From Spiractinospora alimapuensis (GTDB taxonomy: Bacteria; Actinomycetota; Actinomycetes; Streptosporangiales; Streptosporangiaceae), in assembly GCF_018437505.1 (NCBI RefSeq), contig NZ_CP072467.1:3494010-3558009 (forward strand): a stretch of 64,000 nt of DNA, in the 5' to 3' direction. Shown here piece after piece: positions 5,140 through 50,100 of this stretch; positions within the stretch are counted from its first letter, which is position 1; every line of letters starts with the position of its first letter. The notes below the pieces were generated by a model, which was given only the letters and a program-made list of their open reading frames with translations, searched no databases and had not been told where the DNA came from. A program made the position numbers and the translations under genes.

Positions 5140-5278
5140 GTGCCAGCAACGGGAAACGCCGGGTGAGACCTACCGCCATGTCGGGATTCACCCTGACTGC
5201 GGGTATCTATCCACAGAGTTATCCACAGGGTGTGAGCAGCGGGTTCATCTCCCTGTGGACAGACACCAGCCCAGGGGT

Positions 5279-6178: not shown

Positions 6179-6199
6179 GGGTTACGGTCTCCCGGAGAT

Positions 6200-7475: not shown

Positions 7476-7598
7476 CGCGACCAACGGCGGGCGCCGGACG
7501 TGGATGACCACATCCTCCGGCGCCCGAGTCGTGTCCTCGCCAAGGAAGCGGCGCACGGGCTTGTCCTCGGGGCCCACCGATCCCGGGTGGGCGGGGGC

Positions 7599-8216: not shown

Positions 8217-8386
8217 TGGTGCCCCCGAGTCTGGTCGGTCGTCGTACTCGGTTCCATTCTGGGGGACGTCGTGTCGTCCGCGCCATACGGGAAGTCCCCC
8301 ATGCTTCCCTGACCCGCGTTACCACTTTCGGCCAGGCCGGACCAGCGCGGACCCACCCCCGTGCGGGGGCGGTGCGTCCGGACCAG

Positions 8387-9178
8387 TCACGGAGACGGCT
8401 CCACCGTCGTGGTCAGTTCCGGGTCGCCGAAGCACACGTGCCGAGCGACGTCCTGTCCGTCCTTGAGCGGGGTCGGGAACGACCACGCGGCGTCCGGGAG
8501 CTCACTGCCGCCAACCCGAACGGTCCAGTACGTCGCCTCGCCCTTGTAGGGGCAGTGGCGGCGCTTCCGGCTGGGCACGAGCTCCGCCTGGACGTCCTCG
8601 AAGGGAATGTAGTGGCGGTTGGCGAGCCCGGTCTCCGACAGCACCTTCGCCTGCCCGGTCAGGGCCACTGTCGTTCCCTCCCAGTCGACGCGCACCAGAT
8701 CGGTGGTCTCACGGGCGTCGACGCGGTGGAACGGGTCCCGCAGGTGCCCGTGCACGCGTTCGGCCTCGTCGTACCAGGCGTCCGGGGCGTTCCAGTACAT
8801 CGCCGCCATTCCCCGGAGCCAGGACGCGGCTGGGGTGGGGTTCTCGTAGGCCCACACCGCGTCCGCGGATTCCTTGTCCGCGACGTGCAGCGACCAGTAG
8901 GAGGCGTCTCCCTTGAACGGACAGTGTGTCCGATGCTCGCTCGGTTTGAGCTGAGCCACGGCGAGATCCTCGAACGGCACGTACAGCACGGGCGGGAGGT
9001 TGGACTCGTGGACGAGGATCCCCCGGTTGGACTTCAGGACCGTCTTCCCGGCCAGCTCGGCGCGGATCCGACGCGGGAACGGATGGGCGTACAGCAGGTG
9101 CTGTGGTCCGTCGATCGCGTAGTTCACCGTTTCCGGTCGGTCCGTGGCGAGGGGACCTCCGCCGATCGTCAGCGACAT
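8387..9178 (-). CDS. DUF427 domain-containing protein (tandem DUF427 repeats)
   Basis: Two repeats carry HCP[FY]KG(D/E)A(S/T)YW and PxxYxPFEDV motifs. The start is set at the internal ATG 9178 (MSLTIGGG). The upstream 53 aa are Arg-rich and look like ORF over-extension. Confidence 0.65.
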   Translation of the reverse strand: MSLTIGGGPLATDRPETVNYAIDGPQHLLYAHPFPRRIRAELAGKTVLKSNRGILVHESNLPPVLYVPFEDLAVAQLKPSEHRTHCPFKGDASYWSLHVADKESADAVWAYENPTPAASWLRGMAAMYWNAPDAWYDEAERVHGHLRDPFHRVDARETTDLVRVDWEGTTVALTGQAKVLSETGLANRHYIPFEDVQAELVPSRKRRHCPYKGEATYWTVRVGGSELPDAAWSFPTPLKDGQDVARHVCFGDPELTTTVEPSP

Positions 9179-36000: not shown

Positions 36001-38033
36001 ACGCCGCCCTGATCCTCCGGGCGGTGTTGCGCCTGCGCGCGGCGGCCGGGCCGCTCCGCCACGCGGCCCAGGCTCGCGCCGCGGCCCGGCTCTTCTGGGC
36101 GTTCGGCGCGGAGCCGGAGTCCCGCACGGCGTGGCAGACCCGGTCGGTGTCCCTGGCCCGGGCCCGCGACGTGTTCGGACCGCGTTCGTCGTCGTCGGCG
36201 CTCGGCGCACTGCACGACGAACTGGCCGACGCCGTCGGCCAGTTCCTGGACTCCTCAGGGGTGCCGACGACCGCCGCGACCGCGGCCGGCACCTACCTGG
36301 TGGAGGAGCTGGCACAGTCCCCCACCGGCTTCGGGGTCAGCGCGGAGGCCCGCTCCCTGCTGGACGGGTTCCGGTACGCCCTCGGCGGACCGACCGCCGC
36401 TGCCTACAAGGAGTTCACCTCCGATCTCGCGGCGCTGGGCGGGCTGGCGGAACGGCACCAACTGGCCTCCGCCTGGATGGGCGCCTACACGGCGACCCTC
36501 GACGGCGCCACCCCTCCGAGGGAGGTGGTGGACGAGGCGGTCGCGGTGGAGTTGTGCGGAACCGCGGTCCCGCGGTACGACTCCTCCGCCGAGCTGACGG
36601 CGACGGTCGAGGGGGTGCTCGGCGCGCATCCGCGGATCAGCGAGCGCCGGGTCAAGCTGCGTCTGGACGAGTTCCTCGAGCGCACGCGGAGATCGCGCGA
36701 GGAGGACGCGCCCGCGTTCCGTGCCTACCTGCGACGGCGCAACGAGCTGGTGGAGGCCGAACGGTCCCGACTCCGCCTGGAGGAGTACACGCCCAAGGTG
36801 ATGAGCGGGTTCGTCCGCAACCGTCTCCTCGACGAGTCCTACCTGCCACTGATCGGCGACAACCTGGCCAAGCAGCTCGGCGCCACGGGGGACGGCAAAC
36901 GCACCGACAACAACGGCCTGCTCCTCCTCATCTCTCCGCCGGGGTACGGAAAGACCACCCTGATGGAGTACGTGGCGAGCCGACTCGGTCTGGTGTTCGT
37001 GAAGGTCAACGGCCCTGCCCTGGGCCACGCGGTCACGTCCCTGGATCCCGCCGACGCGCCCGACGCCACGGCCCGGCAGGAGGTCGAGAAGATCGGGTTC
37101 GCCCTGGAGATGGGCAGCAACGTACTGCTGTACTTGGACGACATCCAGCACACGAACCCGGAACTGCTGCAGAAGTTCATCTCCCTCTGTGACGGCCAAC
37201 GCCGGATGGAGGGAGTGTGGGAGGGACGCACCCGCACCTACGACATGCGCGGCAAGCGCTTCGCCGTGTGCATGGCGGGCAACCCCTACACCGAGCAGGG
37301 ACAGCGGTTCCGGATCCCGGACATGCTGGCCAACCGGGCCGACGTCTACAATCTCGGCGACGTTCTCTCCGGCAAGGACGACGTGTTCGCGCTCAGTTAC
37401 ATCGAGAACGCGCTCGCGGCCAACACCGTGCTGGCTCCCCTGTCCGGCCGCGACCGGGGGGACATCGAACTCCTGGTGCGGATGGCCTCCGGCGACGGCT
37501 CGGTGCACTCCGATCGCCTGTCCCACCCGTACTCGCAGGTGGAACTGGAGCAGATTCTCGCGGTGCTGCGCAAACTGCTCCGGGTGCAGCAGGTTGTGCT
37601 CGCCGTGAACCAGGCCTACATCGCCTCGGCCGCGCAGTCCGACGACGCCCGGACCGAACCGCCGTTCCAACTCCAGGGCTCCTACCGCAACATGAACCGG
37701 TTGGCGGAGCGCGTGGTCCCGGTGATGAACGAGGCCGAACTCGAGGCCCTGATCGACGACCACTACCTCGGCGAGGCCCAGACACTCACCGCCGGGGCGG
37801 AGGCCAACCTTCTGAAACTCGCCGAACTTCGTGGCACCCTCACCCCGGAACAGGAAGAACGCTGGACCGAGGTCAAGTCCGCCTACCTCCGCACCAAGGC
37901 CCTCGGCGGCGACGGCGAGGACCCCGTGTCCCGAGCCATCGGCGCCGTCGGTCTCCTCGCCGACCGGGTCGGCGACGTCCAATCCGCGATCGAACGCGCC
38001 TCGGACCGGCCGTCGGGGTCGAACGGGCGGTGA
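33018..38033 (+). CDS. Giant (~1,670 aa) protein: N-terminal beta-rich region, long coiled-coil middle, AAA_5 (MoxR/dynein-type) ATPase module near the C-terminus
   Basis: GTG starts 8 nt after the flotillin stop. Walker A ISPPGYGKTT, Walker B LLYLDDIQH, sensor CMAGNPYT and an RF arginine-finger region are present. The frame is uninterrupted for 5 kb. Confidence 0.7.
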   Translation: MTDVSDGPSSTEEGPSPDSGSTLDAGTYEILRGRLAEQAAELSRRAELLNTRRLEVFGSSELRLLGTERIRTEHNCVPRDIVAVGGLMMFGYNVFIGLKPETTVSDVFATYSFERKLEGDGFRFVEAEHEELPGLLADSQFLRDFGELYRYYKDTRLMQLRRVEGKLLAVFQIGLRTDDTRVLRWAVTPRGEVSYRDNRGDRDHVFPAPHDFTWVETTREDHVLGRHPHISILDKVFVETVGGDLTVKVENNTEVGAGIYSEPVDEPLQSLADADVHYAEVGPLILIRIRPYNETTRRHLVFNTRTNEVVRLDGIGRACRRLPEDQGIIFPGGYYLATGASTTFDTDFTDLEFERTIRSPNGEDVLYAFHGREEGRSLLLPYNVIRKEVANPIDCHGYSLFDDGTLVLFRSTSDEPTRVHPLQVWSTPFVSDVHAAAQPTGTGPLERVGNADLVRGISDALSITRMVDEMSPSTAVFEALIAACRRIGDHYHWLGEEELEALAEPVQEVRATARQVLEEFENVQALTRQAAEALETAETEIASLVRRARSEDGDSADAWVTLLAEVRRAQGRVVTLGEMRYVDGDRVADLGRRLSEELDATGQRAVDFLRREEAFAAYHVEVRRLSDDAEAITSVAAAEPVAERLAEQTEGLEVVTEVIDALDIGDAQVRTAVLERIGEVAGAVNRARAALGARRRELMDSEGRAEFAAEFALLGQAVTAALAAADTPDACDDQLGRLMLRLENLESRFAEFDDFLADLTAKREDVYEALSARKQALLDERSRRADRLASSSERILSGVRRRAAALETIDDINTYFASDPMVAKLRSTAEELRALGDTVRAEELDGRVKTVREEAGRALRDRVDLYDDGGETLRLGRHRFAVNTQPIDLTMVPHQGEMAITVTGTDFRQPVRDADFQETRAFWERLLVSESPEVYRAEYLAAGILADAEAGVDAPSIAELSEAALGDGDALSAIVRGAAEARYDEGYERGVHDHDAALILRAVLRLRAAAGPLRHAAQARAAARLFWAFGAEPESRTAWQTRSVSLARARDVFGPRSSSSALGALHDELADAVGQFLDSSGVPTTAATAAGTYLVEELAQSPTGFGVSAEARSLLDGFRYALGGPTAAAYKEFTSDLAALGGLAERHQLASAWMGAYTATLDGATPPREVVDEAVAVELCGTAVPRYDSSAELTATVEGVLGAHPRISERRVKLRLDEFLERTRRSREEDAPAFRAYLRRRNELVEAERSRLRLEEYTPKVMSGFVRNRLLDESYLPLIGDNLAKQLGATGDGKRTDNNGLLLLISPPGYGKTTLMEYVASRLGLVFVKVNGPALGHAVTSLDPADAPDATARQEVEKIGFALEMGSNVLLYLDDIQHTNPELLQKFISLCDGQRRMEGVWEGRTRTYDMRGKRFAVCMAGNPYTEQGQRFRIPDMLANRADVYNLGDVLSGKDDVFALSYIENALAANTVLAPLSGRDRGDIELLVRMASGDGSVHSDRLSHPYSQVELEQILAVLRKLLRVQQVVLAVNQAYIASAAQSDDARTEPPFQLQGSYRNMNRLAERVVPVMNEAELEALIDDHYLGEAQTLTAGAEANLLKLAELRGTLTPEQEERWTEVKSAYLRTKALGGDGEDPVSRAIGAVGLLADRVGDVQSAIERASDRPSGSNGR

Positions 38034-38115
38034 GTTCGACGGGCGGCGGGGCTGTCGGTTCGTGTTCCGCGGGGGCGGGGAGGACGTCGTCTCCTCCCTG
38101 CCCCCGCGGTTCGGA

Positions 38116-38841
38116 TCAGTCGGGGAGGATCCGGCGCAGAATCAGCCGCTCGCCCAGGGCCCACCCGGTGGAGACCAGCAGGTAGAGACCGGCGGCCAGG
38201 GGGACGAAGGCGGCGACCACCGCGGTCATGTACGGCAGGTAGGTGACGATGCCCGGCATCTGCGGCGTCGCCGCGCCGGTGCTCACGGCGGCGTTGTCCC
38301 GCATCGTCGGCACCATGACGTAGCGCCGCTGCGCCCAGGCGATCACCGCGAGGAACGCGATGATCAGCACGAAGACCGGCTCCACCATCGCCCCCTGGGA
38401 CGTCGCGGTCAGGGTGGCCCCCAGCTCCACACCGCCGAAGGTGTCCGACAGCAAGGCGTTGTCGGCACCGGAGGCTCCGACGAAGACGCCGTACAGGGCG
38501 AGGACGATGGGAATCTGCACGAGCCCCGGCAGGCACCCGGCGAAGGGCGAGGACCCCGCCTCGGAGTAGACCTTGCGCTGCTCGGTCATCATCCGTTGGG
38601 GGTCTTTCCGGTACCGGGTGCTGATGCGGGCGAGATCCGGTGCGATGCGTTTGCGCACCTTCTCGGCGCGCACCTGGGAGACGGCCACCGGCACCAGCGC
38701 GAGACGCACCGCGACGGTCAGGAGCACGATGGACAGCCCCGCCGCACCGGCGGGGACGACGGGTGTGAGTGCTGAGGAGATCGCGACCAGGGCCGAGGAC
38801 AGTAGGTCCATGGCGGCCGCGACGGGGGCAAGACTGTACAA
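38116..38841 (-). CDS. yidC: YidC/Oxa1 family membrane protein insertase (short form)
   Basis: 5-TM insertase core (…PFAGCLPGLVQIPIVLALY…). TTG start with a GAAGGG RBS. Confidence 0.8.
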   Translation of the reverse strand: MYSLAPVAAAMDLLSSALVAISSALTPVVPAGAAGLSIVLLTVAVRLALVPVAVSQVRAEKVRKRIAPDLARISTRYRKDPQRMMTEQRKVYSEAGSSPFAGCLPGLVQIPIVLALYGVFVGASGADNALLSDTFGGVELGATLTATSQGAMVEPVFVLIIAFLAVIAWAQRRYVMVPTMRDNAAVSTGAATPQMPGIVTYLPYMTAVVAAFVPLAAGLYLLVSTGWALGERLILRRILPD

Positions 38842-38944
38842 GGGTGGGCCCTTCGTCCGGAACGGGTGTTGTCACTGGACGTCGGGCCGCTCGCTCCCTC
38901 TCCCGTGGAGAGAGACCTACGGTTGGGAGAATTGGGAGAAGTGG

Positions 38945-39256
38945 TCAGCGAGCGGCCACGAGGGCCGCTCCCGGTGCTCTGGGCCGGGGCCGACCGGGCG
39001 TGTCGGGCGCCCGCAGCGGAACGACCTGTAGTCGTTCGGACTTGCGGCGCATGGCACGTACGGCGTCCGGAGCGGCGTCTCCGGCGGGCCAGGACGAGAA
39101 CCCACGCACCAACCGCAACGCGAGAAACGCCGCCGCGGTAACCGCGAGCAGCGCGAACGCCCCGGACATCCCCGGCGTTCCGGGAGCCGCGGCGGAGAAC
39201 TCGAACGGCAGGGTCCCCAGGTATAGGAACTCCAAGAGGGCGATGACGAAGTGCAC
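38945..39256 (-). CDS. Hypothetical small membrane protein
   Basis: 103-aa ORF with a GTG start preceded by GGGAGGAGGGGG. It has two hydrophobic helices and is co-directional with yidC. Confidence 0.35.
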   Translation of the reverse strand: MHFVIALLEFLYLGTLPFEFSAAAPGTPGMSGAFALLAVTAAAFLALRLVRGFSSWPAGDAAPDAVRAMRRKSERLQVVPLRAPDTPGRPRPRAPGAALVAAR

Positions 39257-39744
39257 GTTCCCCCTCCTCCCAACCGCGTCACCCGCAGTCTACGGTCACC
39301 CCACCCCCCAACGCCGGGGGCCCGTCCACTTCCGGACACCAACGCCGGCCCCGAACCCTCGACCCAGGCCTCGACCGTCTACGGCGGAGGGAGCAGAGAC
39401 GTGGTTGCCACACGGGCCCGGCGCGGAGCGCCCAAGCAAGCAGAGGGGGTACCCCAACGAGCACACCGGACGCCCCGCGAGCAGGTTCACCACAGCCAGC
39501 CCGCGGGCCCACCTGTGTCCAGGCCCTCGATCTCCTGCGGCGCCGAACGGATTCGCTTACGGCAAGCTGCCACGGACCGCTCCAGCCACCAGAGAGCGGG
39601 TCCTCCACAGCACGCCGTACACGCAGAGCCACCACCGGACGCTAGACCGAGCCACCTTCGCTCCAGGCCCTCGACCACCACCAACGCCCAGCCAACATTG
39701 CCACGCGGGGGGCATGGGGGGTCGTCCCCCCAACAAACACAAAC

Positions 39745-39790
39745 AAGACGACCCTGCGAGGCTGCCTTAGCAGCCGAGCAGGGTCGTCTT
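39745..39790. terminator. Nested stem-loop (13-bp perfect stem AAGACGACCCTGC/GCAGGGTCGTCTT, 20-nt loop containing GGCTGC/GCAGCC); likely the native tRNA-Ile terminator left at attL
   Basis: Perfect complementarity was seen directly. It lies immediately downstream (tRNA sense) of the displaced 3' tRNA-Ile fragment. Confidence 0.45.
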
Positions 39791-39796
39791 AGAGTC

Positions 39797-39840
39797 GCGT
39801 GGGCGTACGTGGACTTGAACCACGGACCTCATCCTTATCA
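39797..39840. repeat. attL: 44-bp direct repeat (3' portion of tRNA-Ile, anticodon loop to 3' end) identical to 49960-50003
   Basis: cgtgggcgtacgtggacttgaaccacggacctcatccttatcag is identical at both sites. The left copy cannot fold into a complete tRNA. Confidence 0.85.
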
Positions 39841-39922
39841 GTTCGATCCGGGTCGATCTCAGAAGTGTGCTGACGTGGACTCGGCGTCCGCCGCCGTCCG
39901 CCTGAGTCACGTGGTGTCTGGT

Positions 39923-39947
39923 CGCGTTGCTGTCACTACTGCTGTCA
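39923..39947. repeat. 25-bp direct repeat cgcgttgctgtcactactgctgtca (copy 1, inside the element's P' arm, 83 bp from the attL core)
   Basis: Identical to 49888..49912 (48 bp from the attR core). Candidate integrase arm-type site. Confidence 0.55.
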
Positions 39948-40360
39948 GACCGCATCATCGCTGAACGTCCGCCAGCCTCGCACATGCACGGACGACATGT
40001 GCGTTCCTCACTCGCGTCAGGTGGCGGTCCTCCCATCCCGGCGGCGGGTGACGGCGGTATCGAACCGGCGCGGGTTCTGGCGCGTGCGGTCTGTACCCGG
40101 GCACGTCCCGCATCGCGCCAGGTTCCGTGTCGGAACCGGGGGTCCATGGGGGCGGGAGCCCCCTGGTTCCACCAGTCCGCACCCGCGCAAGCGTCCACCG
40201 TTCGGGACCGGGCGGCAGCCCGCAGCCCGAGCGGTGGACGGGGCTGGTGCGACGGCGCGCAGCGCCGGCGCCTTGATCCCATACAGCCGGATTCGGCAGC
40301 GATTTCTACCTGAGCGCCAATGACCTCGATACATTCTTTCCGATCAAGAGATATCTACAA

Positions 40361-41362
40361 TTGGACCACCAGAAAGCAGACTTCAATCCCGACCCAAACA
40401 TTGGGCCTCGAACAAACACCAACAAGGCGATAAAATTTCAGATCCATCGGAGGATGACACGATCAAGCACAAAGAGAGGGACAACTTTGGTAAACACAGG
40501 CGAACCCGATGCAACCGATGACGCCAATCCGCCTAACAGTACAGAAGGCCCCACCACGGCTGCCTATGATCTTGCTGACACAAGATTCAGATTACATGAG
40601 AACCAGAGTGCTATCGAAAAGGAAGAGAACGGCAAGAGATACTCGTCGTGGGCCATTACATCAACCTTCGTGTTTCTGATATTGATAGCGGCACTCAACT
40701 ACATCGACCCTCCCCACACACCCCTTCTGTGGATCAACATCGGAACAGGGATTGTTGCCATTACCGCGATAATTTGGAGCGGACTAAACGTAACCCACAG
40801 AAATGCGAGCATAACAAGACTCCACTCATCACGTCGAAAATTGCGCGACGCAGAGAAGAACGCCAGGATTCGCGTATCCGATCGAGACTTGACACGAATC
40901 CTCTGGAACTACCACTCGGACATCGCGGCAGCCATCGATGACTACAGAGCCAGCGCTCGCAGCTACAGGACCATCCACAATAGATTCCAGACCTTCATCA
41001 TTGTTGTCTCCCTCCTGGTTACCGCAGTAACCACCGCCTCTGCACAGTTCTCTGGACTCGAATGGATCGCCGCAGTCCTCAGCTTCTTGGTCGCCGTATC
41101 GACAGGAATTCTTGGCTACTTCAAGTTCCGCGATCGCGGAGTAAACTTACAACGAGCGGCGGATGACCTGGAATACGAATACAATTCAGTCGAACTTGGG
41201 ATCAATTCTTACCGCAATGAGGAGAATACAGACAAACGTCTGAAGCTATTTGCAGAAAAATCCGAGTCCATCAAAATTGAACAAAGGAAGCGAGAGCAAC
41301 AAATGGAGCAAGGCCCAGAGCAGCAGACGACATCCGGCGGCAGCGAAGGCTCAGGACAATAG
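40361..41362 (+). CDS. AT-rich cargo gene: 4-TM membrane protein with tandem SLATT/DUF4231-like 2-TM modules (predicted pore-forming/effector-type)
   Basis: The ORF is far lower in GC than the rest of the window. It has two pairs of TM helices, each followed by a basic/acidic helix (…YRTIHNRFQTFIIVVSLLVTAVTTA…LSFLVAVSTGILGYFKFRDRGVNLQRAADDLEYEY). The pattern matches DUF4231/SLATT. The start is uncertain (TTG 40361 or ATG 40454). Confidence 0.55.
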   Translation: MDHQKADFNPDPNIGPRTNTNKAIKFQIHRRMTRSSTKRGTTLVNTGEPDATDDANPPNSTEGPTTAAYDLADTRFRLHENQSAIEKEENGKRYSSWAITSTFVFLILIAALNYIDPPHTPLLWINIGTGIVAITAIIWSGLNVTHRNASITRLHSSRRKLRDAEKNARIRVSDRDLTRILWNYHSDIAAAIDDYRASARSYRTIHNRFQTFIIVVSLLVTAVTTASAQFSGLEWIAAVLSFLVAVSTGILGYFKFRDRGVNLQRAADDLEYEYNSVELGINSYRNEENTDKRLKLFAEKSESIKIEQRKREQQMEQGPEQQTTSGGSEGSGQ

Positions 41363-41414
41363 ATCTCGCATCATCCCATGAATTCATCTTGCTTCATTCC
41401 TGTAAAGTGTCCCC

Positions 41415-42197
41415 ATGAGCCCGGAACGACTCATAAACCTTGGGCAAGAGCTTGGCCGCCTGAGAAAGTCAGTCGGACAGTCAGGCCGCACGTTGGCCTT
41501 CCTAGCGTCGGTCCCACAGCCGACCATATCCCGCGTTGAGAACGGACAGCGGGTGCGATCGGTTGAGGTGGTCGAACGCATCATTTCTGCTTTGCCGCTG
41601 GATGAGGGCGAGGCGGCCCGGTTGCGATCGAATGCGCGGGCCGCGTATGCGGAGGAGGCTCCTCCTCGGATCGATTCGGGGTTCTCGCTGAAGTCGGACG
41701 CTGTGCGCAGGTTGGAACGTTCGGCGACGGTGGTGTGGAGCTTTCAGTCCGCGGTACTGCCTCGGCTGCTCCGGACTGCCGAGTACAGCCAGGCTGCGGG
41801 CATGCCGCGTCTGAACAGTTCGGATCTCCTCGACGACGAGAGTCGAGCCTTCCGGTTCCTGGTGACTGAGGGCGCGCTGCGGACCTGGCCGGGTGCCGCC
41901 GAAGTGATGCCAGGTCAGCTCAACCACCTGACGTACGCGTCGACCCGGCCGAACCTATGGCTCGGTGTAATCCCCTGGTCGACGCCCATGCACACCATGC
42001 CTCCCCACGGGTTCACCGTGTACGACCAAGCGGCGGTGTCGGTGGAGACCTTCACGGCCGAGTTGACGATCACTGACCCGAACGACGTGACCGCCTACCG
42101 GGACGCCTTCGCAGATCTGGAACGCGCTGCCGTGACTGGGGACGAAGCACTGGCCGTGTTGGACACGATCCGTGAGGACCTCGGACGATTCCATTGA
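41415..42197 (+). CDS. XRE-family HTH regulator with DUF5753 C-domain (Scr1-like)
   Basis: HTH (GRTLAFLASVPQPTISRVENGQR) plus DUF5753. Paralogous to the chromosomal copy at 23802-24635. Confidence 0.75.
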   Translation: MSPERLINLGQELGRLRKSVGQSGRTLAFLASVPQPTISRVENGQRVRSVEVVERIISALPLDEGEAARLRSNARAAYAEEAPPRIDSGFSLKSDAVRRLERSATVVWSFQSAVLPRLLRTAEYSQAAGMPRLNSSDLLDDESRAFRFLVTEGALRTWPGAAEVMPGQLNHLTYASTRPNLWLGVIPWSTPMHTMPPHGFTVYDQAAVSVETFTAELTITDPNDVTAYRDAFADLERAAVTGDEALAVLDTIREDLGRFH

Positions 42198-42272
42198 TTC
42201 AGTGAATTCGTTGAATCATTCTGCCTTGGTGGCTTACCCTGCCCACAAGCAAGGTGTATAGCCCCCTAGACG

Positions 42273-42680
42273 ATGGTGGTTTTGATGGATCGCTGGTCTC
42301 GAATGTTCACCGCGCGCCCTGACCAAGTCGGTGCGGCGCGGGCCTTTACGTGTGGCGTACTGGAGGGACACCCCTCGTGCGATGACGCGTTGGTCGTCGT
42401 CAGCGAGCTGGCCACCAACTCCGTCCAGCACTCCTTAAGCGGGTGCTACGAGGGTCCGTTCATCGTCTCGATCGAGGTCCACGAGGAATCGGTACGTCTG
42501 AGTGTCCTGGACCTCGGCTCGGACTCCGAGCCGGTGCTTGAACAGCCAGAGGACGCCACGCAAGAACGTGGACGTGGACTGTGGTTGGTCGCGCAACTCT
42601 CCAAGGAGTGGGGTGTGGAGGCGGTGCAGGCAGAGTTCCTGCGGGTGTGGGCCGAACTCGTTCCCGAAACCGCCCCATGA
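42273..42680 (+). CDS. HATPase_c-type ATP-binding protein (RsbW/anti-sigma-factor-like Ser kinase family)
   Basis: ~135 aa with …VSELATNSVQHS… (N-box) and …ERGRGLWLVAQLSKEWGV… (G-box-like). This is the typical Streptomyces partner of XRE/DUF5753 genes. Confidence 0.7.
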   Translation: MVVLMDRWSRMFTARPDQVGAARAFTCGVLEGHPSCDDALVVVSELATNSVQHSLSGCYEGPFIVSIEVHEESVRLSVLDLGSDSEPVLEQPEDATQERGRGLWLVAQLSKEWGVEAVQAEFLRVWAELVPETAP

Positions 42681-42814
42681 CCGGTCCGCGCATGCCTCGG
42701 CGGCGCCGACTGTTCAACGCCATCAGCTCAACATCGGGCCAGGTCATGGATCCTGCCTTGTCTAGGGACCTAGACTCTCCCTCAGAGGACTGTGCGCACG
42801 AGGGAAGGGGGCCG

Positions 42815-43660
42815 ATGTCCAGCGAGTTTGAGCGCATTGCCGCCATGGAGGACCCGTTCGCGCTCCTGCGTGCGGCGACCGACCGGCTCAGTGAGGCACA
42901 GCAGGAGGTCACGGACCTGTCCCGGCTGCGCCGTCGCACAATTCAGGACCTGCACGCGCAAGGTCTCTCCTACGCGCAGATCGCCACACAGGCCGGCCTG
43001 AGCCGCGGTCGCATCCACCAGATCCGTCATACCGGTCCCGCTCCGGAAGGCGCGTTCTTCGGATCGGGCACGGTCACCATTGTCACGCCACTGCGGCCCG
43101 AGCCGGGCAAACCGCGGGCTGCAGTGTCCCTGGATGACCTCAACACCGGCAAGCGACTGGAGGACCTTGTCCGCTCCTTCGACCTGACGGTGCAGGACGA
43201 TCATGTCAGCGTTGACGGGGTGGTCGACCTGGATCGCCCTGGCCTGGTGGTCGTGTGCGGGCCGCGGATGTCGGAAGCGATGGCCAGGACCTACGCGCTC
43301 GATCCCGTGTTCGCCTGGGAACGTAACGATGCCGGCCCATGGTGTATTCGGGACCGGCGCACCGGGAAGGCCCACTACGCGGGCTCGGACGAGGCGCCGC
43401 CCTCGGCTGGTGACATCGGATACCTGGGTCGCCTTCCTCGGCCGGATGGTGCTGGCTCGATTCTGGCCATCGCTGGTATCCACCCGGTGGGCTCGCTGGG
43501 GGTGGCCCACTGGCTGACCACCGACATCGCCACCCTCTGGGGCCAGGTCGGGGATCAGGACTTCTCCGTCCTCATCCGTACCGAGTACGACCCGGACACC
43601 AATGAACCGGTGAAAACCGAGATGGCGACTCCGCTCTACCGTCACGAGGACGGGCGTTGA
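42815..43660 (+). CDS. Hypothetical protein with N-terminal sigma-70 region-4-like HTH
   Basis: ATG 42815 with GAGGGAAGGGGG upstream. HTH RRRTIQDLHAQGLSYAQIATQAGLSRGRIHQI. The C-terminal 200 aa are of unknown family. Confidence 0.5.
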   Translation: MSSEFERIAAMEDPFALLRAATDRLSEAQQEVTDLSRLRRRTIQDLHAQGLSYAQIATQAGLSRGRIHQIRHTGPAPEGAFFGSGTVTIVTPLRPEPGKPRAAVSLDDLNTGKRLEDLVRSFDLTVQDDHVSVDGVVDLDRPGLVVVCGPRMSEAMARTYALDPVFAWERNDAGPWCIRDRRTGKAHYAGSDEAPPSAGDIGYLGRLPRPDGAGSILAIAGIHPVGSLGVAHWLTTDIATLWGQVGDQDFSVLIRTEYDPDTNEPVKTEMATPLYRHEDGR

Positions 43661-44481
43661 GTTTCCGCCTGGCCACAGCTCGCGCCAAACCCGATCGGCC
43701 CAACGAGGACTTCGCCGCCGTGGGAACGAACGCGGCGGTCCTCCTCGATGGTGCGGGCACTCCGCCCGGAACCGTGTCCGGGTGCGTTCACGGAGTCGCG
43801 TGGTACGCCTCCACCCTCGGCGGGCTGCTCCTGGGGGCGCTCGGCTCTGCGAACAGTCCTGCCGGCGCGTTGGCTGACAGCATCGAGCGGGTCAACCAGC
43901 TCCACGCGGACACCTGCGACCTCAAGCACTCCGAAACACCCTCCTCCACCGTCGTCGCCCTGCGCTGGGATCACGCACACTGCGAGTACCTCGTGCTGGC
44001 GGATTCCGTGCTGGTCTTCGACCGAACCGGGAACGCGTCCCCGGACGTGGTGACAGACGACCGGGAAGCCGTCATGGGCGCTGAACTTCGCGGCCCCATG
44101 GACGCTCTACACACGGGGACGCCCGAACACTCCCGCGCGTGGAGCGACTACGCGGCCACTCTCGCCGACCACCGCAACCAACCAGGCGGATTCTGGGTCG
44201 CCAGCACCGATCCAAGCGCCGCAGACGAGGCGATCGCCGGTCGGGTGCCTCTGGACCAGGTGAACGCGGTCGCACTGCTCAGTGACGGTGCGAGCCGTCT
44301 GGTCGACCGCTTCCGCCTGACGACATGGCGCGCAACCCTCGATTCCCTCGCCCACGCCGGCCCTGCCGACCTGATCGACCAGGTCCGAACGGCAGAGCAC
44401 GGCGACCCAGACGGGCGACGATGGCCACGCGCCAAGAACCATGACGATGCGACCGTGATCTACGGACACCCCAGAGCCTGA
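43657..44481 (+). CDS. PP2C-family (SpoIIE/PP2C_2-like) protein phosphatase
   Basis: Carries NEDF, LLDGAGT and LLSDGASRLV motifs typical of PP2C_2 metal-binding sites. The TTG start overlaps the upstream stop (TTGA). Confidence 0.6.
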   Translation: MSFRLATARAKPDRPNEDFAAVGTNAAVLLDGAGTPPGTVSGCVHGVAWYASTLGGLLLGALGSANSPAGALADSIERVNQLHADTCDLKHSETPSSTVVALRWDHAHCEYLVLADSVLVFDRTGNASPDVVTDDREAVMGAELRGPMDALHTGTPEHSRAWSDYAATLADHRNQPGGFWVASTDPSAADEAIAGRVPLDQVNAVALLSDGASRLVDRFRLTTWRATLDSLAHAGPADLIDQVRTAEHGDPDGRRWPRAKNHDDATVIYGHPRA

Positions 44482-44603
44482 ATACCCCCCTAGACAACCG
44501 GCGGACATCGCGCTACCTTTTGTCTATACCCCTAGACAACATCAACGGGAATTAGGCGTTCGCAGCGTCTAGGGGGCTAAACGGACAAGAGAGAGGCTGA
44601 CCG

Positions 44604-45008
44604 ATGGCGATTCAAGGTGCGCTTCCGGTGGAGTTCGGAGTCGTGTTCCCGCACGGTGCTTTCGCGCTCGGCGTGGAGGCGATCACGGATTTCGAGACGA
44701 AGAAGCCGCAGATGGACAAGGCGACCGGGTTGCCGCTGTGGGCGGTGGAGGTGATCGACGCCGATCCGGAAGCGCGCGGTAAGGCGAAGTCGGTGAAGGT
44801 GAAGGTTGCCGCGGACGTGTGCCCGACACTGCCGGATGAGGTGGGCGGTATGCCGTTTCGCCCGGTCGAGTTCGAGTCGATGTCCGTCGTGCCCTACGTC
44901 GACGACAACGGGCGCCGACCGCGTGTGGCCTACTCGCTGCGTGCTCGCGGTGTGAGGACCCCCGGATCTGGGGCGCGAAAGTCGCCTGCGGCCAAGGAAG
45001 CCGCCTAG
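44604..45008 (+). CDS. Hypothetical AICE protein (134 aa)
   Basis: ORF of normal GC immediately upstream of the tra/rep operon. No motif recognised. Confidence 0.4.
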   Translation: MAIQGALPVEFGVVFPHGAFALGVEAITDFETKKPQMDKATGLPLWAVEVIDADPEARGKAKSVKVKVAADVCPTLPDEVGGMPFRPVEFESMSVVPYVDDNGRRPRVAYSLRARGVRTPGSGARKSPAAKEAA

Positions 45009-45105
45009 AACGACGGTGGGGCGGCGCGATGTTGGCGCATCACGTCGCCCCGGAATCCTCCCCCTGCTATCCCTTGCGAAGACCTGGAAGAGGTGTCCCC
45101 TCATT

Positions 45106-45369
45106 ATGTCCGACCACCCTGCCCAAGTCCGTCTGGCTGCGCAGATCTCGCACTTCCTCGCTCTGGCCGGAGAGCGGATGCGCCGCCCCGCTGGCGACGT
45201 CATGGCCCCGGATGACGACCTGGCGTTCTTCGAACACAAGGCCGCGCTGTTCACGCGGATCGCCGCTGAGAGCCCCGATGACGAGCTCCGCCAGGAGGTG
45301 GCCGCCCGCGCGCGTGCTCAACTGTCCGAGGCGTTGCGGCGCCACGGGGTGGGCGGGGGCGAGCGGTGA
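45106..45369 (+). CDS. Hypothetical small AICE protein (87 aa)
   Basis: Internal ATG of ORF 45016..45369. Its stop overlaps the traB start (GTGATG). Confidence 0.3.
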   Translation: MSDHPAQVRLAAQISHFLALAGERMRRPAGDVMAPDDDLAFFEHKAALFTRIAAESPDDELRQEVAARARAQLSEALRRHGVGGGER

Positions 45370-46805
45370 TGGCGTTCCTGAGCAACGGGGCCACCCAAGT
45401 ACAGCCGACGGTGCCGCTTCCCTCTTCCGCGCTGCGCTTCACGACGCCTGTGGTGCGCACACCGGCCGCCTTCGTCCTCGCTGGCTGGTTGCTACGCCTC
45501 CTGACCTTCACTGCCAAGCTCCCCCTCCGTTTCCCCACGGCGGTCACCCTGGCCGCGACTTCGTCCGTGGTCGCTTCCATGCTGGGCTGGGTCGCCGCGA
45601 CTGGGCTATGGGTGGTGCTCGGGACGCTGCTGGGCGTGTGGGCCTGGCGTCGACCGGCCTCCTTTCGCCGGCTGGTCACGCTGCGCCTGCTGGCGGCATG
45701 GCGGTGGTGGTGGGTCTACGCTCGCCACTGGCAACCCGTGCTGGTGGTCGCTGGGCTGGCGGAGTCCTACGCTGAGCGGCGCTACCTGCCGCGGATTCGC
45801 CGCGTGCGCTGCACGGACCATTCCGATCGGGTGCGCGTACGTCTCGTCTCCGGCACCGCGCCCTCCGACGTCGAGAAGCGGGTCACCGAGCTTGCCCACG
45901 GGTTCGGCGCACCGTCGTGTCGGGTGGAGGTCGCCGGTCCGCGGGACGTGGTGCTGGAGTTCCCTCGCTTCGATCCGCTGGCCGACCCGGTCGATGCCCT
46001 GGACGTTCCCGCAACCGCCTCCCCGGCCGCACTGCCCATAGGAGTTCGGGAGGACGGCGGTACCTGGTGGCTGCGGCTGCACGGCACCCATGTTCTGACC
46101 GTGGGAGTGACCGGCGCCGGGAAGGGGTCGGTGATCTGGTCGACGATCCGTGCCCTGCTCCCCGGGGTGGACGACGGGTCGGTACAGATCTGGGCGATCG
46201 ACCCCAAGCGTATGGAGCTCTCCTTCGGGCGGCGCCTGTTCGCGCACTACGCAGACACCGCTGAGTCCGCGGTGGACCTGCTGGAACAGGCAGTTGCCGA
46301 CATGCAGGGACGAGCGTCGCGCTACGCCGGGCACCAACGCACCCACCGGCCTACCAAACGTGACCCCTTCGTGGTCGTCGTGGTCGACGAGGTGGCCTTC
46401 CTGACCGCCTACCACCCTGACCGCGACATCCGGCGGCGTGCGGAGAACGCGATCGCCACCCTCACCTCGCAAGGGCGCTCGGTCGGGTTCTCAGTACTCG
46501 CCGCCTTGCAGGATCCCCGCAAGGAGGTGCTGAACCTCCGCAACCTGTTCCCCGACAAGATCGCCCTCCGGCTCGACGAGGCGTCCCAGGTTGACATGGT
46601 GCTCGGTGCGGACGCTCGGGAACGGGGCGCCAACGCACACCTGATCGATCCGGCGCTCCCTGGGGTCGGATTCGTGCGCTGTGAAGGTTCACCCGTCCCA
46701 CTGAGGGTCCGGGCCGCGTTCGTCACCGACGACGACATCGACCACATGGCCGACCACCACGCCCGTCCCGCACTGTCGGCCGTACCCCACGAGGGGGCCG
46801 CCTGA
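45366..46805 (+). CDS. traB: FtsK/SpoIIIE-family DNA translocase (AICE transfer protein TraB/TraSA-like)
   Basis: N-terminal TM helices, Walker A VGVTGAGKGS, Walker B VVVVDEVA. Translationally coupled to repSA. Confidence 0.8.
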   Translation: MMAFLSNGATQVQPTVPLPSSALRFTTPVVRTPAAFVLAGWLLRLLTFTAKLPLRFPTAVTLAATSSVVASMLGWVAATGLWVVLGTLLGVWAWRRPASFRRLVTLRLLAAWRWWWVYARHWQPVLVVAGLAESYAERRYLPRIRRVRCTDHSDRVRVRLVSGTAPSDVEKRVTELAHGFGAPSCRVEVAGPRDVVLEFPRFDPLADPVDALDVPATASPAALPIGVREDGGTWWLRLHGTHVLTVGVTGAGKGSVIWSTIRALLPGVDDGSVQIWAIDPKRMELSFGRRLFAHYADTAESAVDLLEQAVADMQGRASRYAGHQRTHRPTKRDPFVVVVVDEVAFLTAYHPDRDIRRRAENAIATLTSQGRSVGFSVLAALQDPRKEVLNLRNLFPDKIALRLDEASQVDMVLGADARERGANAHLIDPALPGVGFVRCEGSPVPLRVRAAFVTDDDIDHMADHHARPALSAVPHEGAA

Positions 46806-48487
46806 TGCCAACCCCAACCGGCAAGAGCACCCGTGCCGAACGTATGGCCCAACCTCTCGCGCGTGAGGTGGCCGAACAGATCGCGGCCGACAAGGGGGTC
46901 TGCATCCGCCCTGTCTCGCTGCGACGTGTTGATACGCGTACCGGAGACTCCGAGGTGATCGACGTTCCGTGCGGCTCGACCCTCGAATCTCGGTGTCCGG
47001 CCTGCGCCAAGCGCAAGCGATCGATCCGCCGCACCCAATGCGAGGAAGGGTGGCACCTGGCAGAGGACCCCACACCCGAACCCAACGATCCCACCGAGGT
47101 TCAGCGCTCCTGGGTGGAACAGCGCGCTCTCGTGACCGCGGAACGCGACCTCCTGGCCACCACCGACCTCGACGCCGACCGCCTGGCCGCGCTGGACGCC
47201 GCGATCGCCGACCTGGACGAAGAGATCAAAGCGTCCGGGCTTCGGGGATCGGTGTCTCCTCGCTCGTCCTCGTCGGGCACCTCCCGGCGCGTGCGTTCCA
47301 CCAAACGGCGCAAGGACGCACCAGACCTCCCTAAACGCCAGATGGCCAAAACGACCGTGGGGCGGTCCTACGAGGACCCCGCGACGGGCAAGACGTTCCG
47401 ACCGTCGCTTTTCCTCACCCTCACCTGCGACACCTACGGGCGCGTGAAGCCCGATGGCACGCCGGTGGATCCCGCGACCTACGACTACCGGCGGGCCGCG
47501 CGGGACGCGTTGCACTTCTCCAAGCTCATCGACCGGTTCGTGCAGAACCTGCGGCGCGTGGCGGGCTTCGATGTCCAGTACTTCGCGACGGTCGAACCCC
47601 AACGCAGGCTGGCACCGCACCTGCACATGGCCACGCGTGGGACGCTCCCACGGGCCGAGTTGCGCCAGATCGCCGCCGCCACCTACCACCAAGTCTGGTG
47701 GCCACACGTCGACAAGCCCCTCTACGGCGGCACCAACCTGCCTGGCTGGGACGAGTCGATCGATGGCTATGTCGACAGGACCACAGGGGAAGTACTGCCC
47801 ACCTGGGACGAAGCGTTGGACGCGCTCGATGCCGACCCCGATGCCGAACCCATGCACGTCGTCCGCTTCGGCCCCCAGATCGACGCCAAGGGCGTGGTGG
47901 CCGGCACCCAGGACGCCGATCGGTGCGTGCGGTACCTCGCGAAGTACCTCACCAAGGACATCGCCGACTGCCACGACATCGAGTCCTCAGCACAGGAACG
48001 ACACGTGGAACGCCTCGTGGACGCGCTGCGCTTCGAACCCTGCTCGCCCCGGTGCTCGAACTGGCTGCGCTACGGCATCCAACCCCAGGACGCCAAAGCG
48101 GGCATGACCCCCGGATACTGCCGCTCCAAGGCCCACCGCCGCGAACACCTCGGCTACGCGGGCCGGCGGGTCCTCGTCTCCCGCAAGTGGTCCGGCAAGA
48201 CACTCGCCGACCACAAGGCCGACCGCCTGGCCTGGGTCCTCGACGCCCTGGGCATCGATCCCAACACCAACCCCACGGACGAGGGCCAGGGCGACGGCCT
48301 CACACTCACACCGCCCGCGGATTCCTCCGGTCACCACACCTGGGAACTCGCCAGACCGACTGACCCCGACGTCCCGCCACGGGAACATCGGCTCCTCCGT
48401 GCGGTCGGTGAGGCCCTGAAACGCCGTGCGCGACTCGACCACGCACGCGAGACCAACCGTTCGGCAACCAGAGAGGCCGCGGCATGA
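46805..48487 (+). CDS. repSA: Rolling-circle replication initiator, RepSA family
   Basis: 560-aa protein with Cys-rich N-terminus and a HLHMATRG region. Position between tra and xis-int is typical of pSAM2-type AICEs. ATGA overlap with traB. Confidence 0.7.
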   Translation: MPTPTGKSTRAERMAQPLAREVAEQIAADKGVCIRPVSLRRVDTRTGDSEVIDVPCGSTLESRCPACAKRKRSIRRTQCEEGWHLAEDPTPEPNDPTEVQRSWVEQRALVTAERDLLATTDLDADRLAALDAAIADLDEEIKASGLRGSVSPRSSSSGTSRRVRSTKRRKDAPDLPKRQMAKTTVGRSYEDPATGKTFRPSLFLTLTCDTYGRVKPDGTPVDPATYDYRRAARDALHFSKLIDRFVQNLRRVAGFDVQYFATVEPQRRLAPHLHMATRGTLPRAELRQIAAATYHQVWWPHVDKPLYGGTNLPGWDESIDGYVDRTTGEVLPTWDEALDALDADPDAEPMHVVRFGPQIDAKGVVAGTQDADRCVRYLAKYLTKDIADCHDIESSAQERHVERLVDALRFEPCSPRCSNWLRYGIQPQDAKAGMTPGYCRSKAHRREHLGYAGRRVLVSRKWSGKTLADHKADRLAWVLDALGIDPNTNPTDEGQGDGLTLTPPADSSGHHTWELARPTDPDVPPREHRLLRAVGEALKRRARLDHARETNRSATREAAA

Positions 48488-48675
48488 GTGCCCTTCCGAC
48501 GCGACGCCTACTGACCGTCCCCGAAGTCATGGGCGCGTTGCGCCTCGGGCGCTGGAAGGTCTATGAGCTGATCCGATCCGGCCGGCTGAAGTCGGTGAAG
48601 ATCGGGCGCGACCGCCGCATCCCCACAGAAGCCCTGGACACGTTCATCTCCGAGCTACGAGAGGAAGCCGCCTGA
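48484..48675 (+). CDS. xis: Excisionase (Xis, HTH_17/MerR-like DNA-binding)
   Basis: 63 aa. LTVPEVMGALRLGRWKVYELIRSGRLKSVKIGRDRRIP is the excisionase pattern. Overlaps repSA and int. Confidence 0.7.
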   Translation: MSALPTRRLLTVPEVMGALRLGRWKVYELIRSGRLKSVKIGRDRRIPTEALDTFISELREEAA

Positions 48676-49886
48676 TGGCCACACGTAACCCCGCTTCTCG
48701 TGACGAGCCGGAAGGCCGCAAAGGCAAACGCGACCGTGCCAACGGGGAGGGAACGGTCTACCAGCGCAACGACGGTCGGTGGGTCGCTGAAGCGTACGTA
48801 CTCGCCTCGGATGGTTCCCTGAAGCGCGTTCAGCGCTATGCCCGTACGCGCAAAGCGGCCTATGACAGGCTCACGGCGCTTCAGGAGAACAGCAACCGGA
48901 ACATCGCGGTTCCGAATCGCCCGTGGAAGCTGGGGGAGTACCTCGACTACTGGCTGGAGCACGTGGCCAAGCCGTCGGTGCGGGCGACGACCTACGCCAA
49001 GTACGAGCAGATGGTGCGCCTGTACTTGAAACCAGAGCTCGGCAGTCAGCGACTCGACCGGCTACGGGTCGCCACGATCCAGACGTGCCTCAACGGGCGG
49101 CTGAAAGGAGGCGACTCTATCGCCAAGGTGCACGCGATGCGCACCACGCTCAGCTCGGCGCTGACCCGTGCCATGCGGGAAGAGCTGATCACGGTGAATC
49201 CCGCTCGGCTCGTCACTCTGCCCGCGGAGTCGCCCGAACGGCTCAGGCCCTGGAACGCCGAGGAGGGGAGGCGGTTCCTCGACCACGCCCGAAGCCACCA
49301 CCTGTACCCGGTGTTCGTGCTCATGCTCATCTACGGGCTGCGGCGGGGCGAAGTGCTGGGGCTGTCCTGGGAGGACGTCGACCTGGAACAGGACGTCATG
49401 TCGATACGTCGCCAAGTCCAACGCGTTGACGGTTCCCTCGAACTGGTGGAGGTGAAGACGCGCGCCGGTCGGCGGTCATTGCCGCTGCTGTCCTGGGCTC
49501 GCGACGCCCTGACCGATCAAGCGCAATGGCAGACGCGGAAGCGCCGCACCGCCGGAGAGGCTTGGGTCGATACCGGCCTCGTCTTCACCACCAGGACCGG
49601 GCGGGCGATCCAGCCGCGGAACCTGTCACGCAGCTTCGAACGACTGTCGGCGTCAGCCGGCATGCGCCCTATCCGGCTGCACGACCTGCGGCACTCGGCG
49701 GCCTCGTTGCTCAAGCGTTCTGGAGTCGCTCCGCGGGACGCGATGGAGATCCTCGGGCACAGCCGGATCTCGGTCACGATGGAGATCTACACGCACAGCG
49801 ACGAGGAGACGCAGCGGGAAGGGCTCGGCCGACTGGGCGGGGCGCTCTTCGGCGACGAGGACGAGAACCAGAACGGGGATTCGTGA
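48675..49886 (+). CDS. int: Tyrosine-type site-specific integrase
   Basis: Phage-integrase C-terminal catalytic residues (…R…, HDLRHSAASLL, …Y…). Adjacent to the tRNA attachment site. Confidence 0.9.
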   Translation: MATRNPASRDEPEGRKGKRDRANGEGTVYQRNDGRWVAEAYVLASDGSLKRVQRYARTRKAAYDRLTALQENSNRNIAVPNRPWKLGEYLDYWLEHVAKPSVRATTYAKYEQMVRLYLKPELGSQRLDRLRVATIQTCLNGRLKGGDSIAKVHAMRTTLSSALTRAMREELITVNPARLVTLPAESPERLRPWNAEEGRRFLDHARSHHLYPVFVLMLIYGLRRGEVLGLSWEDVDLEQDVMSIRRQVQRVDGSLELVEVKTRAGRRSLPLLSWARDALTDQAQWQTRKRRTAGEAWVDTGLVFTTRTGRAIQPRNLSRSFERLSASAGMRPIRLHDLRHSAASLLKRSGVAPRDAMEILGHSRISVTMEIYTHSDEETQREGLGRLGGALFGDEDENQNGDS

Positions 49887-49887
49887 C

Positions 49888-49912
49888 CGCGTTGCTGTCA
49901 CTACTGCTGTCA
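49888..49912. repeat. 25-bp direct repeat (copy 2), begins 2 nt after int stop
   Basis: Identical to 39923..39947. Confidence 0.55.
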
Positions 49913-49945
49913 AAGGCCCCTGCCGGATTCCGGACAGGGGCCTTT
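49912..49945. terminator. Stem-loop AAAGGCCCCTG-(ccggattccgga)-CAGGGGCCTTT downstream of int
   Basis: 11-bp perfect stem with an inner CCGGA/TCCGG mini-stem. Putative int terminator, or part of the P arm. Confidence 0.45.
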
Positions 49946-49959
49946 GTGCAGCTTATGGA

Positions 49960-50003
49960 CGTGGGCGTACGTGGACTTGAACCACGGACCTCATCCTTAT
50001 CAG
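49960..50003. repeat. attR: 44-bp direct repeat, lying within the intact tRNA-Ile
   Basis: Identical to 39797..39840. Confidence 0.85.
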
Positions 50004-50035
50004 GGATGCGCTCTAACCGACTGAGCTATACGCCC
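49962..50035 (-). tRNA. tRNA-Ile (anticodon GAT)
   Basis: 74-nt cloverleaf on the reverse complement. Acceptor GGGCGTA/TACGCCC, anticodon stem CATCC/GGATG, loop CTGATAA, T-loop TTCAAGT. Confidence 0.9.
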
Positions 50036-50100
50036 GCAACCGGGGGAAACTTTACCGCATCTGTGCCGTGGCGGCGAACTGGTGCGGTTCTGGGTTCAGT

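Follow-up and report, generated by a model that had tools for sequence, protein, structure and literature searches.

A conserved four-gene regulatory cassette with a putative operator of its own, and a separate SLATT cargo gene, on an integrative element of Spiractinospora alimapuensis

The window analysed here is a stretch of 64,000 nt from the genome of Spiractinospora alimapuensis (assembly GCF_018437505.1, contig NZ_CP072467.1, positions 3,494,010 to 3,558,009 of the forward strand), and coordinates below refer to that window unless another locus is named. It carries a complete pSAM2-type actinomycete integrative and conjugative element (AICE) of 10.2 kb, at 39798–50003, inserted in a tRNA-Ile gene. 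We assign it to this type because it combines a tyrosine integrase, xis, RepSA, an FtsK-like Tra and pra with att repeats in the tRNA gene. All genes of the element lie on the + strand, beginning with five genes that we call g1 to g5 and continuing through a 134-aa pra homologue, a 117-aa open reading frame (ORF), an FtsK/SpoIIIE gene, the RepSA gene, an xis-like ORF and the integrase gene. An earlier note on this DNA had described the first five as a single sensor–effector cargo module. Its coordinates and gene order for five co-directional genes between attL and the transfer genes were confirmed, as were its domain assignments for all five (profile searches including DUF4231/SLATT_1, HATPase_c_2 and PP2C_2). 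The comparisons set out below nevertheless divide the five into a SLATT membrane gene, g1, and a four-gene cassette, g2–g5, that belongs to the regulatory backbone of the element. The five genes are as follows.

40454–41362, + strand: g1, a SLATT_1/DUF4231 protein with four transmembrane (TM) helices, 302 aa from the ATG annotated in the source genome
41415–42197, + strand: g2, a WhiJ-like regulator with an XRE helix-turn-helix (HTH) plus DUF5753 (HTH_31; DUF5753, 102.5 bits)
42273–42680, + strand: g3, a HATPase_c_2 protein (50 bits), predicted to be an RsbW/SpoIIAB/AbaA-like Ser kinase or antagonist
42815–43660, + strand: g4, a regulator of 281 aa whose N-terminal HTH resembles sigma-70 region 4 and whose C-terminal part is an α/β domain
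43657–44481, + strand: g5, a PP2C_2 phosphatase (26.5 bits, cut-off 24), overlapping g4 by 4 bp

The reading frame of g4 opens at 42581, and agreement with about 120 full-length homologues places its real start at the ATG at 42815. Its HTH scores 23.3 bits against Sigma70_r4, just below the cut-off of 24.1 (residues 102–151 of the long ORF), and the same family is recorded for most g4 homologues. Domain scans found no sigma region 2 in g4, which is therefore not a sigma factor. The C-terminal 190 residues match no Pfam family; a structure model of moderate confidence folds them into a three-layer α/β domain with generic fold matches only, and a search of PDB sequences with the g4 profile returned nothing below E = 0.1. 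Elsewhere this domain is fused to XRE-type HTHs, as would be expected of the signal-receiving domain of a one-component regulator. The invariant GSLGV that follows a β-strand had suggested a STAS domain, which hhalign against a SpoIIAA sequence rejected (0.25% probability).

The catalytic motifs of g3 and g5 are conserved, and kinase and phosphatase activities are predicted for them accordingly. Boxes N (E..N..H), G1 (D.G) and G2 (GRGL) are retained in 77 orthologues of g3, and the PP2C metal-binding motifs NEDF, DGAG, SDGA and DDAT in 80 orthologues of g5. The earlier note had likened the set to partner switching, and its kinase, phosphatase and HTH genes do form a real conserved set. With the RsbW–RsbV–RsbU/P and SpoIIAB–SpoIIAA–SpoIIE systems the cassette shares a small anti-sigma-type HATPase_c_2 kinase and a PP2C phosphatase, and its presumed target carries a sigma region-4-like HTH. 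It is not, however, a canonical partner-switching system, because it has no STAS anti-anti-sigma protein and no complete sigma factor, g4 being devoid of region 2. It differs further in lying on a mobile element with operators of its own.

Conservation of the cassette was surveyed in 80 genomic loci fetched with a g4 profile, out of at least 211 genomic matches, with the proteins of the window searched by tblastn. In 79 of the 80 loci g5 adjoins g4. Both g2 and g3 precede g4 in 77. The upstream sequence is long enough in 73 loci, and in 71 of these the gene order XRE/DUF5753 – HATPase_c_2 – HTH+α/β – PP2C_2 is constant. This synteny spans about 75 genomes of several actinomycete families and includes members of Streptomyces, Actinomadura, Streptosporangium and Nocardiopsis. 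The cassette almost always adjoins pra–tra–repSA on its downstream side, with pra present in 71 loci, tra in 67 and repSA in 57. The most conserved cassette protein is g4, with 60–88% identity between families and an HTH that hardly varies; g2 reaches 35–52%. Plasmids of Streptomyces and Micromonospora carry more distant g4–g5 pairs, and there neither g2 nor g3 lies within 6 kb. Elsewhere a median of 21 nt separates the g4 and g5 matches (tblastn). A possible fusion of g4 with a PP2C-like region was seen in one protein of 565 aa, whose PP2C_2 score of 18.6 bits (E = 0.0014) lies below the cut-off of 24.

Two sister elements show what kind of position the cassette occupies. The closest relative, in Haloactinospora alba, is a minimal AICE that encodes XRE, HATPase, HTH, PP2C, a pra-like protein, a small ORF, FtsK, RepSA, Xis and Int, so that the cassette is the only content not concerned with transfer or integration. 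In Nocardiopsis sp. FIRDI 009 (locus L001), a homologous SLATT gene lies at the left and pra–tra–repSA at the right, at 73–78% nucleotide identity; in place of g2–g5 stand a flavoprotein, a NUDIX protein, a GntR regulator, two small unknown ORFs and a second GntR regulator. Tblastn detected homologues of these GntR and NUDIX proteins in all six long SLATT loci (L001–L006), and the 80 cassette loci had none. Searched directly in our window, the GntR and NUDIX proteins of sister AICEs gave no tblastn match, and no Pfam match of that kind was present either. From the exchange in L001 and this distribution, we conclude that the cassette stands where such elements have their regulators, and that it and regulators of the KorSA/Pif type exclude one another.

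Further support comes from a repeated palindrome. The putative operator is a 16-bp sequence, GTCTAG-N4-CTAGAC, with five sites in the window:

42256–42271, no strand assigned: O1, GTATAGCCCCCTAGAC, ending 1 nt before the ATG of g3
42760–42775, no strand assigned: O2, GTCTAGGGACCTAGAC, ending 39 nt before the ATG of g4
44480–44495, 44522–44537 and 44567–44582, no strand assigned: O3–O5, in the 122-nt spacer between g5 and pra, with starts 42 and 45 nt apart

The motif CCCTAGAC has five copies in the 64-kb window, all of them in the g2/g3, g3/g4 and g5/pra spacers, against an expectation of 1.07; none of 100 shuffles reached five. No site lies upstream of g1 or g2 in the window. Across the 80 loci the layout is repeated, with a single site in the g2–g3 spacer, one or two ahead of g4 and three ahead of pra, and many of these sites are perfect palindromes. 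The register of the site before g4 hardly varies: in nearly all of the 80 loci its first base lies 43 nt ahead of the g4 start. Only two sites across all loci were classed as lying upstream of g2. In elements of the Streptomyces type, the short intergenic stretch immediately before repSA holds one more operator. No operator was found in 102 kb of AICE loci that carry no cassette. The presence of the operator before pra, and before repSA in the Streptomyces elements, thus ties the cassette to the genes of excision and replication.

Given that the cassette is the sole extra content of the H. alba element and that its operator stands before pra and repSA, g2–g5 is the backbone regulatory region of the element, and not cargo as the earlier note had it. 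The closest known counterpart is the KorSA–Pra–Pif circuit of pSAM2 described by Sezonov, Possoz and colleagues, in which KorSA represses pra, Pra activates the rep–xis–int operon and the trigger of transfer is unknown (PMC2440964). The two agree in position, between the att-proximal end and pra–tra–repSA–xis–int, and in their target, pra; both place a resident regulator with operators before the activator gene, and the modules are interchangeable between sister elements. They differ in that the cassette has neither a GntR repressor nor a NUDIX hydrolase, and instead comprises XRE/DUF5753, HATPase_c_2, sigma region-4-like HTH and PP2C proteins, and in that its operator is another 16-bp palindrome with up to six sites.

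We therefore consider it likely that g2–g5 is the AICE's own regulatory cassette, controlling excision, replication and transfer, and that g1 is independent cargo. Dimers of g4, or less likely of g2, would occupy the operators and hold g3, g4–g5 and pra under control; at its simplest, g4 would be a Kor-like repressor that keeps the element integrated. In such a scheme g3 and g5 would act antagonistically on the C-terminal α/β domain of g4, or on g2, through Ser/Thr phosphorylation or sequestration. A signal that tips the balance between g3 and g5 would then release pra and allow excision, replication and transfer. A more far-reaching version, which seems to us possible and which we put forward tentatively, is a Ser/Thr phospho-switch in which a HATPase_c_2 kinase and a PP2C phosphatase would target a new α/β domain, similar to a receiver, in an HTH master regulator that has an operator regulon to itself. 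Such a switch would decide when actinomycete elements and plasmids of one large family excise and transfer; beside it would lie a defence-gene hotspot holding a single-gene SLATT membrane effector.

Several points weigh against this interpretation. Which protein binds the operators, whether regulation is positive or negative, and what is phosphorylated are matters of inference, and neither a STAS domain nor another known kinase substrate was found in the cassette (Pfam; hhalign against SpoIIAA). The recognition helix of the g2 XRE domain is conserved, and g2 could bind the operator instead of g4. By analogy with the WhiJ/AbaA paralogues, which act on host development in Streptomyces (PMC10294661), the cassette could also, or instead, target host genes. 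As for g1, its function is assigned by family analogy, and the 52-nt gap between g1 and g2 contains no predicted terminator, making co-transcription possible in this element.

The first of these doubts about binding leads to an alternative in which the picture stays the same and g2 is the master repressor that occupies the operators, as the analogue of Kor, with g4 a downstream activator or sigma-like target antagonised by g3. XRE dimers typically have operators that are 16-bp palindromes, GntR or XRE regulators are reported for AICEs, and WhiJ9 directly regulates its adjoining gene (PMC10294661). The conserved recognition helix and the location of O1 in the g2–g3 spacer would suit such a role, and so would the membership of g3 in an anti-sigma family next to a g4 with a sigma region-4-like HTH. 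Yet motif-like sites occur where g2 is absent within 6 kb. Plasmids with g4–g5 and without g2–g3 have repeats upstream of their g4-like genes, in which a run of C stands next to TAGAC, TTAAC or TAAAC, and L076, a chromosomal locus without g2–g3, has kept an operator site. The near-invariance of the operator also parallels the conservation of g4 better than that of g2. Because of its higher conservation and these sites on g2-less plasmids and in L076, g4 is the probable operator-binding regulator on sequence grounds, and we think g2 in this role somewhat unlikely.

It is also conceivable that g2–g5 rides on the AICE as an autonomous passenger without control over mobility, either as a defence or addiction module or as a module of the WhiJ/AbaA type that reprograms host development or antibiotic production. 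The architecture of g2, an XRE HTH plus DUF5753, is that of WhiJ, and the adjoining g3 is an AbaA-like HATPase_c protein, so the pair resembles the WhiJ–AbaA paralogue pairs that act on Streptomyces development (PMC10294661). A self-contained module would likewise fit the 62–64% identity of g4 in elements whose FtsK protein is only 25–32% identical, and the g4–g5 pairs on plasmids. Set against the WhiJ–AbaA–BldB clusters, however, the cassette has no DUF397 (BldB-like) gene, the gaps of 75 nt between g2 and g3 and of 134 nt between g3 and g4 holding no small ORF; its pair is fixed to HTH and PP2C genes; and it is AICE-borne, with operators at pra and repSA. The recurrence of the operator before these two drivers of excision and replication is hard to reconcile with a passenger, as is the location of the cassette at the exact KorSA/Pif position, exclusive of those regulators and as sole regulator on the minimal H. 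alba element. All AICEs are reported by te Poele et al. to encode a GntR- or XRE-family regulator (PMC2440964). Searches of PADLOC-DB 2.0 gave no match for g3, g4 or g5, and g2 matched generic HTH "control protein" models only. We regard a passenger of this kind as quite improbable, and the reading of g2–g5 as the element's own control region as the better account.

The first gene of the five stands apart. Open from a TTG at 40361 to 41362, g1 matches Pfam DUF4231 at 35.7 bits (cut-off 24.7) and NCBIfam NF033634 SLATT_1 at 81.1 bits (cut-off 41), with coverage of residues 187–314 only. The g1 product is 100% identical to an annotated protein of the S. alimapuensis genome. It has four TM helices in two hairpins. 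Within the SLATT domain, hydropathy peaks at residues 177–201 and 197–225 of the 302-aa protein mark two TM helices, and the structure model has helices at 146–196 and 200–222. The earlier note had proposed two consecutive SLATT units of two TM helices each; the two hairpins are there, and only the C-terminal one is SLATT, the N-terminal hairpin being variable. A tandem SLATT arrangement was accordingly rejected at the sequence level, the two halves aligning with a probability of 8.6% in hhalign. A conserved, charged tail (EQRKREQQLEQ) ends the protein. Foldseek comparison of the g1 model with the PDB gave nothing at E < 0.3, the matches being BAR-domain-like helical noise only.

The note was right that g1 is AT-rich, at 50.4% GC against 65.6% for g2–g5 and 68% for the window. 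Homologues of g1 share this trait, with 48–58% GC in hosts of 62–70% GC. Low GC is thus a property of the whole g1 family and no evidence for recent arrival in this genome, so the proposed recent foreign origin is unsupported. Six homologues led us to seven loci in Nocardiopsis, Streptomyces and metagenomes (40–64% identity), where the gene sits at the edges of other AICEs or AICE remnants and adjoins GntR, NUDIX, CYTH, NACHT, AbiTii or PycTM genes. In one of them AbiTii is directly upstream of the SLATT homologue (L006, 6639–8873), and a PycTM protein lies on another SLATT-bearing element (L005, 11801–12226).

According to the earlier note, all five genes form one sensor–effector system for abortive infection or exclusion, in which the kinase and phosphatase gate the SLATT effector. 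The genes are indeed co-directional and tightly spaced, with the short gap between g1 and g2 in which no terminator is predicted. SLATT proteins are also known as defence effectors (DRT10; preprint 10.64898/2026.04.29.721553), and g1 weakly matches the RTasSLATT model of PADLOC-DB 2.0 (E = 2.8e-4). The neighbourhood survey nonetheless separates them, since a SLATT gene was found in none of the 80 g4 loci and homologues of g2, g4 and g5 in none of the seven SLATT loci. No operator lies near g1, its GC content differs from that of g2–g5 by 15 points, H. alba has the same AICE without it, and g3, g4 and g5 are foreign to the defence models searched. Homologues of g1 occur individually, and those of g2–g5 are conserved together. 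A single five-gene system is therefore very hard to credit, and we return to g1 as solitary cargo, separate from the g2–g5 switch.

As for what that cargo does, g1 has much in common with the SLATT effectors of CBASS-like, SLOG and DRT3/DRT10 systems: it is a bona fide SLATT_1 protein, with two TM helices plus flanking helices, and its slot holds defence genes in sister elements. It differs from them in having no adjacent cyclase, SLOG protein or reverse transcriptase, and in its extra, non-homologous N-terminal 2-TM hairpin and charged C-terminal tail. A domain scan found no nucleotidyltransferase on the element, as the earlier note had stated, and neither a cyclase (SMODS) nor a SLOG protein nor a reverse transcriptase was present on the AICE or beside the homologues in the seven loci. 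By analogy with these effectors, and with the restriction and Abi genes of the same slot in sister elements, g1 most likely acts at the membrane by itself, in defence or exclusion.

The place where g1 is inserted is variable. At its left edge lies a non-coding element:

40192–40303, + strand: non-coding double-hairpin element, marking the left edge of the variable cargo slot

In H. alba the XRE gene directly follows this element of about 100 nt, and in our window g1 lies in between. The element is 79–87% identical in five related AICEs with differing flanking cargo, its copies being at 8401–8509 in L093, 7750–7849 in L001, 2727–2822 in L033, 1–94 in L024 and 1177–1480 in L030. RNAalifold of five sequences predicts two GC-rich hairpins with 35 pairs, 8 of them with compensatory changes; in the outer stem of the first hairpin, the sequence varies between elements and the complementarity is kept. 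The element matches no Rfam family. Possible roles are those of a site like clt or oriT, of an origin, of a region with a terminator or promoter, and of a non-coding RNA.

Among the cassette loci (L008–L087), the attL-proximal slot extends 0–4.5 kb upstream of the XRE gene. The 135 ORFs found upstream of g2 in the 80 loci match 125 Pfam families, including C5, N6 and EcoRI methylases, GmrSD, AAA_15/AAA_21, HNH, Mrr and ResIII, and many of these ORFs have a low GC content at third codon positions (GC3). The cargo differs between two S. bacillaris elements that share this backbone: one has a DUF4365 gene plus unknowns, the other a Cap4 nuclease with AAA_23. In L091 and L092, which are of the S. 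bacillaris type, the slot cargo occupies 4213–7691 and 3676–7381. The attL-proximal slot of cassette-bearing AICEs is thus a hotspot of cargo that is diverse and often of low GC content, rich in restriction–modification and Abi-type families.

Some outlying g4–g5 pairs depart from the common arrangement. On the Streptomyces uncialis plasmid NZ_CP109292 (L089, 5920–8742), the gene after a distant g4 homologue encodes a protein of 443 aa, and next comes a P-loop AAA_33/zeta-toxin-like kinase. The 443-aa protein combines an N-terminal stretch of 270 residues, with 44% identity to g5, and a C-terminal UTRA ligand-binding domain. This locus looks like a variant of the switch with another kinase fold and a phosphatase that senses a small molecule. 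Just downstream of the plasmid g4–g5 pair in L090 lies an Abi_2 protein (8260–8925). In Actinoallomurus purpureus (L018, 6001–7644), an intact g4–g5 pair, 67% and 56% identical to that of the window, stands without g2–g3 or operator sites, neither pra nor tra lies close by, and the 500 nt upstream of g4 (5500–6010) begin with tandem repeats of about 16 nt (GGCCGGCTCGGTGGCC). This pair may be a domesticated or decayed copy.

The remaining features of the element, from its borders to its backbone genes, are these:

39798–39841, no strand assigned: attL, a 44-bp direct repeat, 100% identical to the attR copy, which is the 3' end of tRNA-Ile
49960–50003, no strand assigned: attR, inside tRNA-Ile(GAT) (49961–50035, minus strand)
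39923–39947, no strand assigned: perfect 25-nt direct repeat, with its second copy at 49888–49912 between int and attR
44604–45008, + strand: pra homologue, 134 aa, activator of replication, integration and excision
45016–45369, + strand: 117-aa ORF between pra and tra, without a Pfam match
45366–46805, + strand: traSA-type FtsK/SpoIIIE DNA translocase (domain match)
46805–48487, + strand: repSA replication initiator (RepSA, 334 bits)
48484–48675, + strand: putative xis, a 63-aa HTH excisionase-like ORF whose position matches that of an HTH_17 gene in L091 and L093
48675–49886, + strand: tyrosine integrase, whose homologues carry Phage_integrase

We identify the 134-aa gene as a pra homologue because it is 42% identical to a plasmid gene annotated as "plasmid replication, integration and excision activator"; in Nocardiopsis AICEs its homologues are 80–89% identical. 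The xis-like ORF is translationally coupled to repSA and int. Since the 25-nt repeats would lie on both arms of the attP formed on excision, they are candidate arm-type integrase sites. A scan for promoters and terminators yielded no promoters and one terminator, below the shuffle expectation, and in an Rfam scan of 38000–50500 the tRNA was the sole match. Outside the element, about 950 nt (38842–39797) separate attL from a hydrophobic 241-aa ORF (38116–38841, minus strand). No ORF in this interval has the GC3 signature of coding DNA, Rfam gives no match, and the strands are strongly asymmetric, with AT skew up to +0.34 and GC skew down to −0.16.

Consistent with the earlier note, no description of the kinase/phosphatase set was found in the literature searched. 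The AICE reviews and surveys mention GntR/XRE regulators, Pra, NUDIX and Imp proteins, and in them the cassette, the kinase/phosphatase pair and the palindrome are absent. A full-text search for the domain combination and the operator sequence, with coverage that mostly excludes subscription journals, returned nothing relevant. The four-gene cassette and its operator are thus apparently undescribed.

Gene flow in Streptomyces and related antibiotic producers is carried mainly by AICEs, and a cassette with operators at pra and repSA offers a testable handle on the long-open question of what triggers their transfer. The operator is a ready target for reporters, and the kinase/phosphatase pair hints at a post-translational signal; the phospho-switch, if true, would supply a missing signal-transduction step in conjugation of the Streptomyces type. 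The locus also illustrates how an apparent new defence system can consist of a backbone module and a cargo gene in juxtaposition, and it points to the attL-proximal slot of AICEs as a place to seek the defence genes of actinomycetes.

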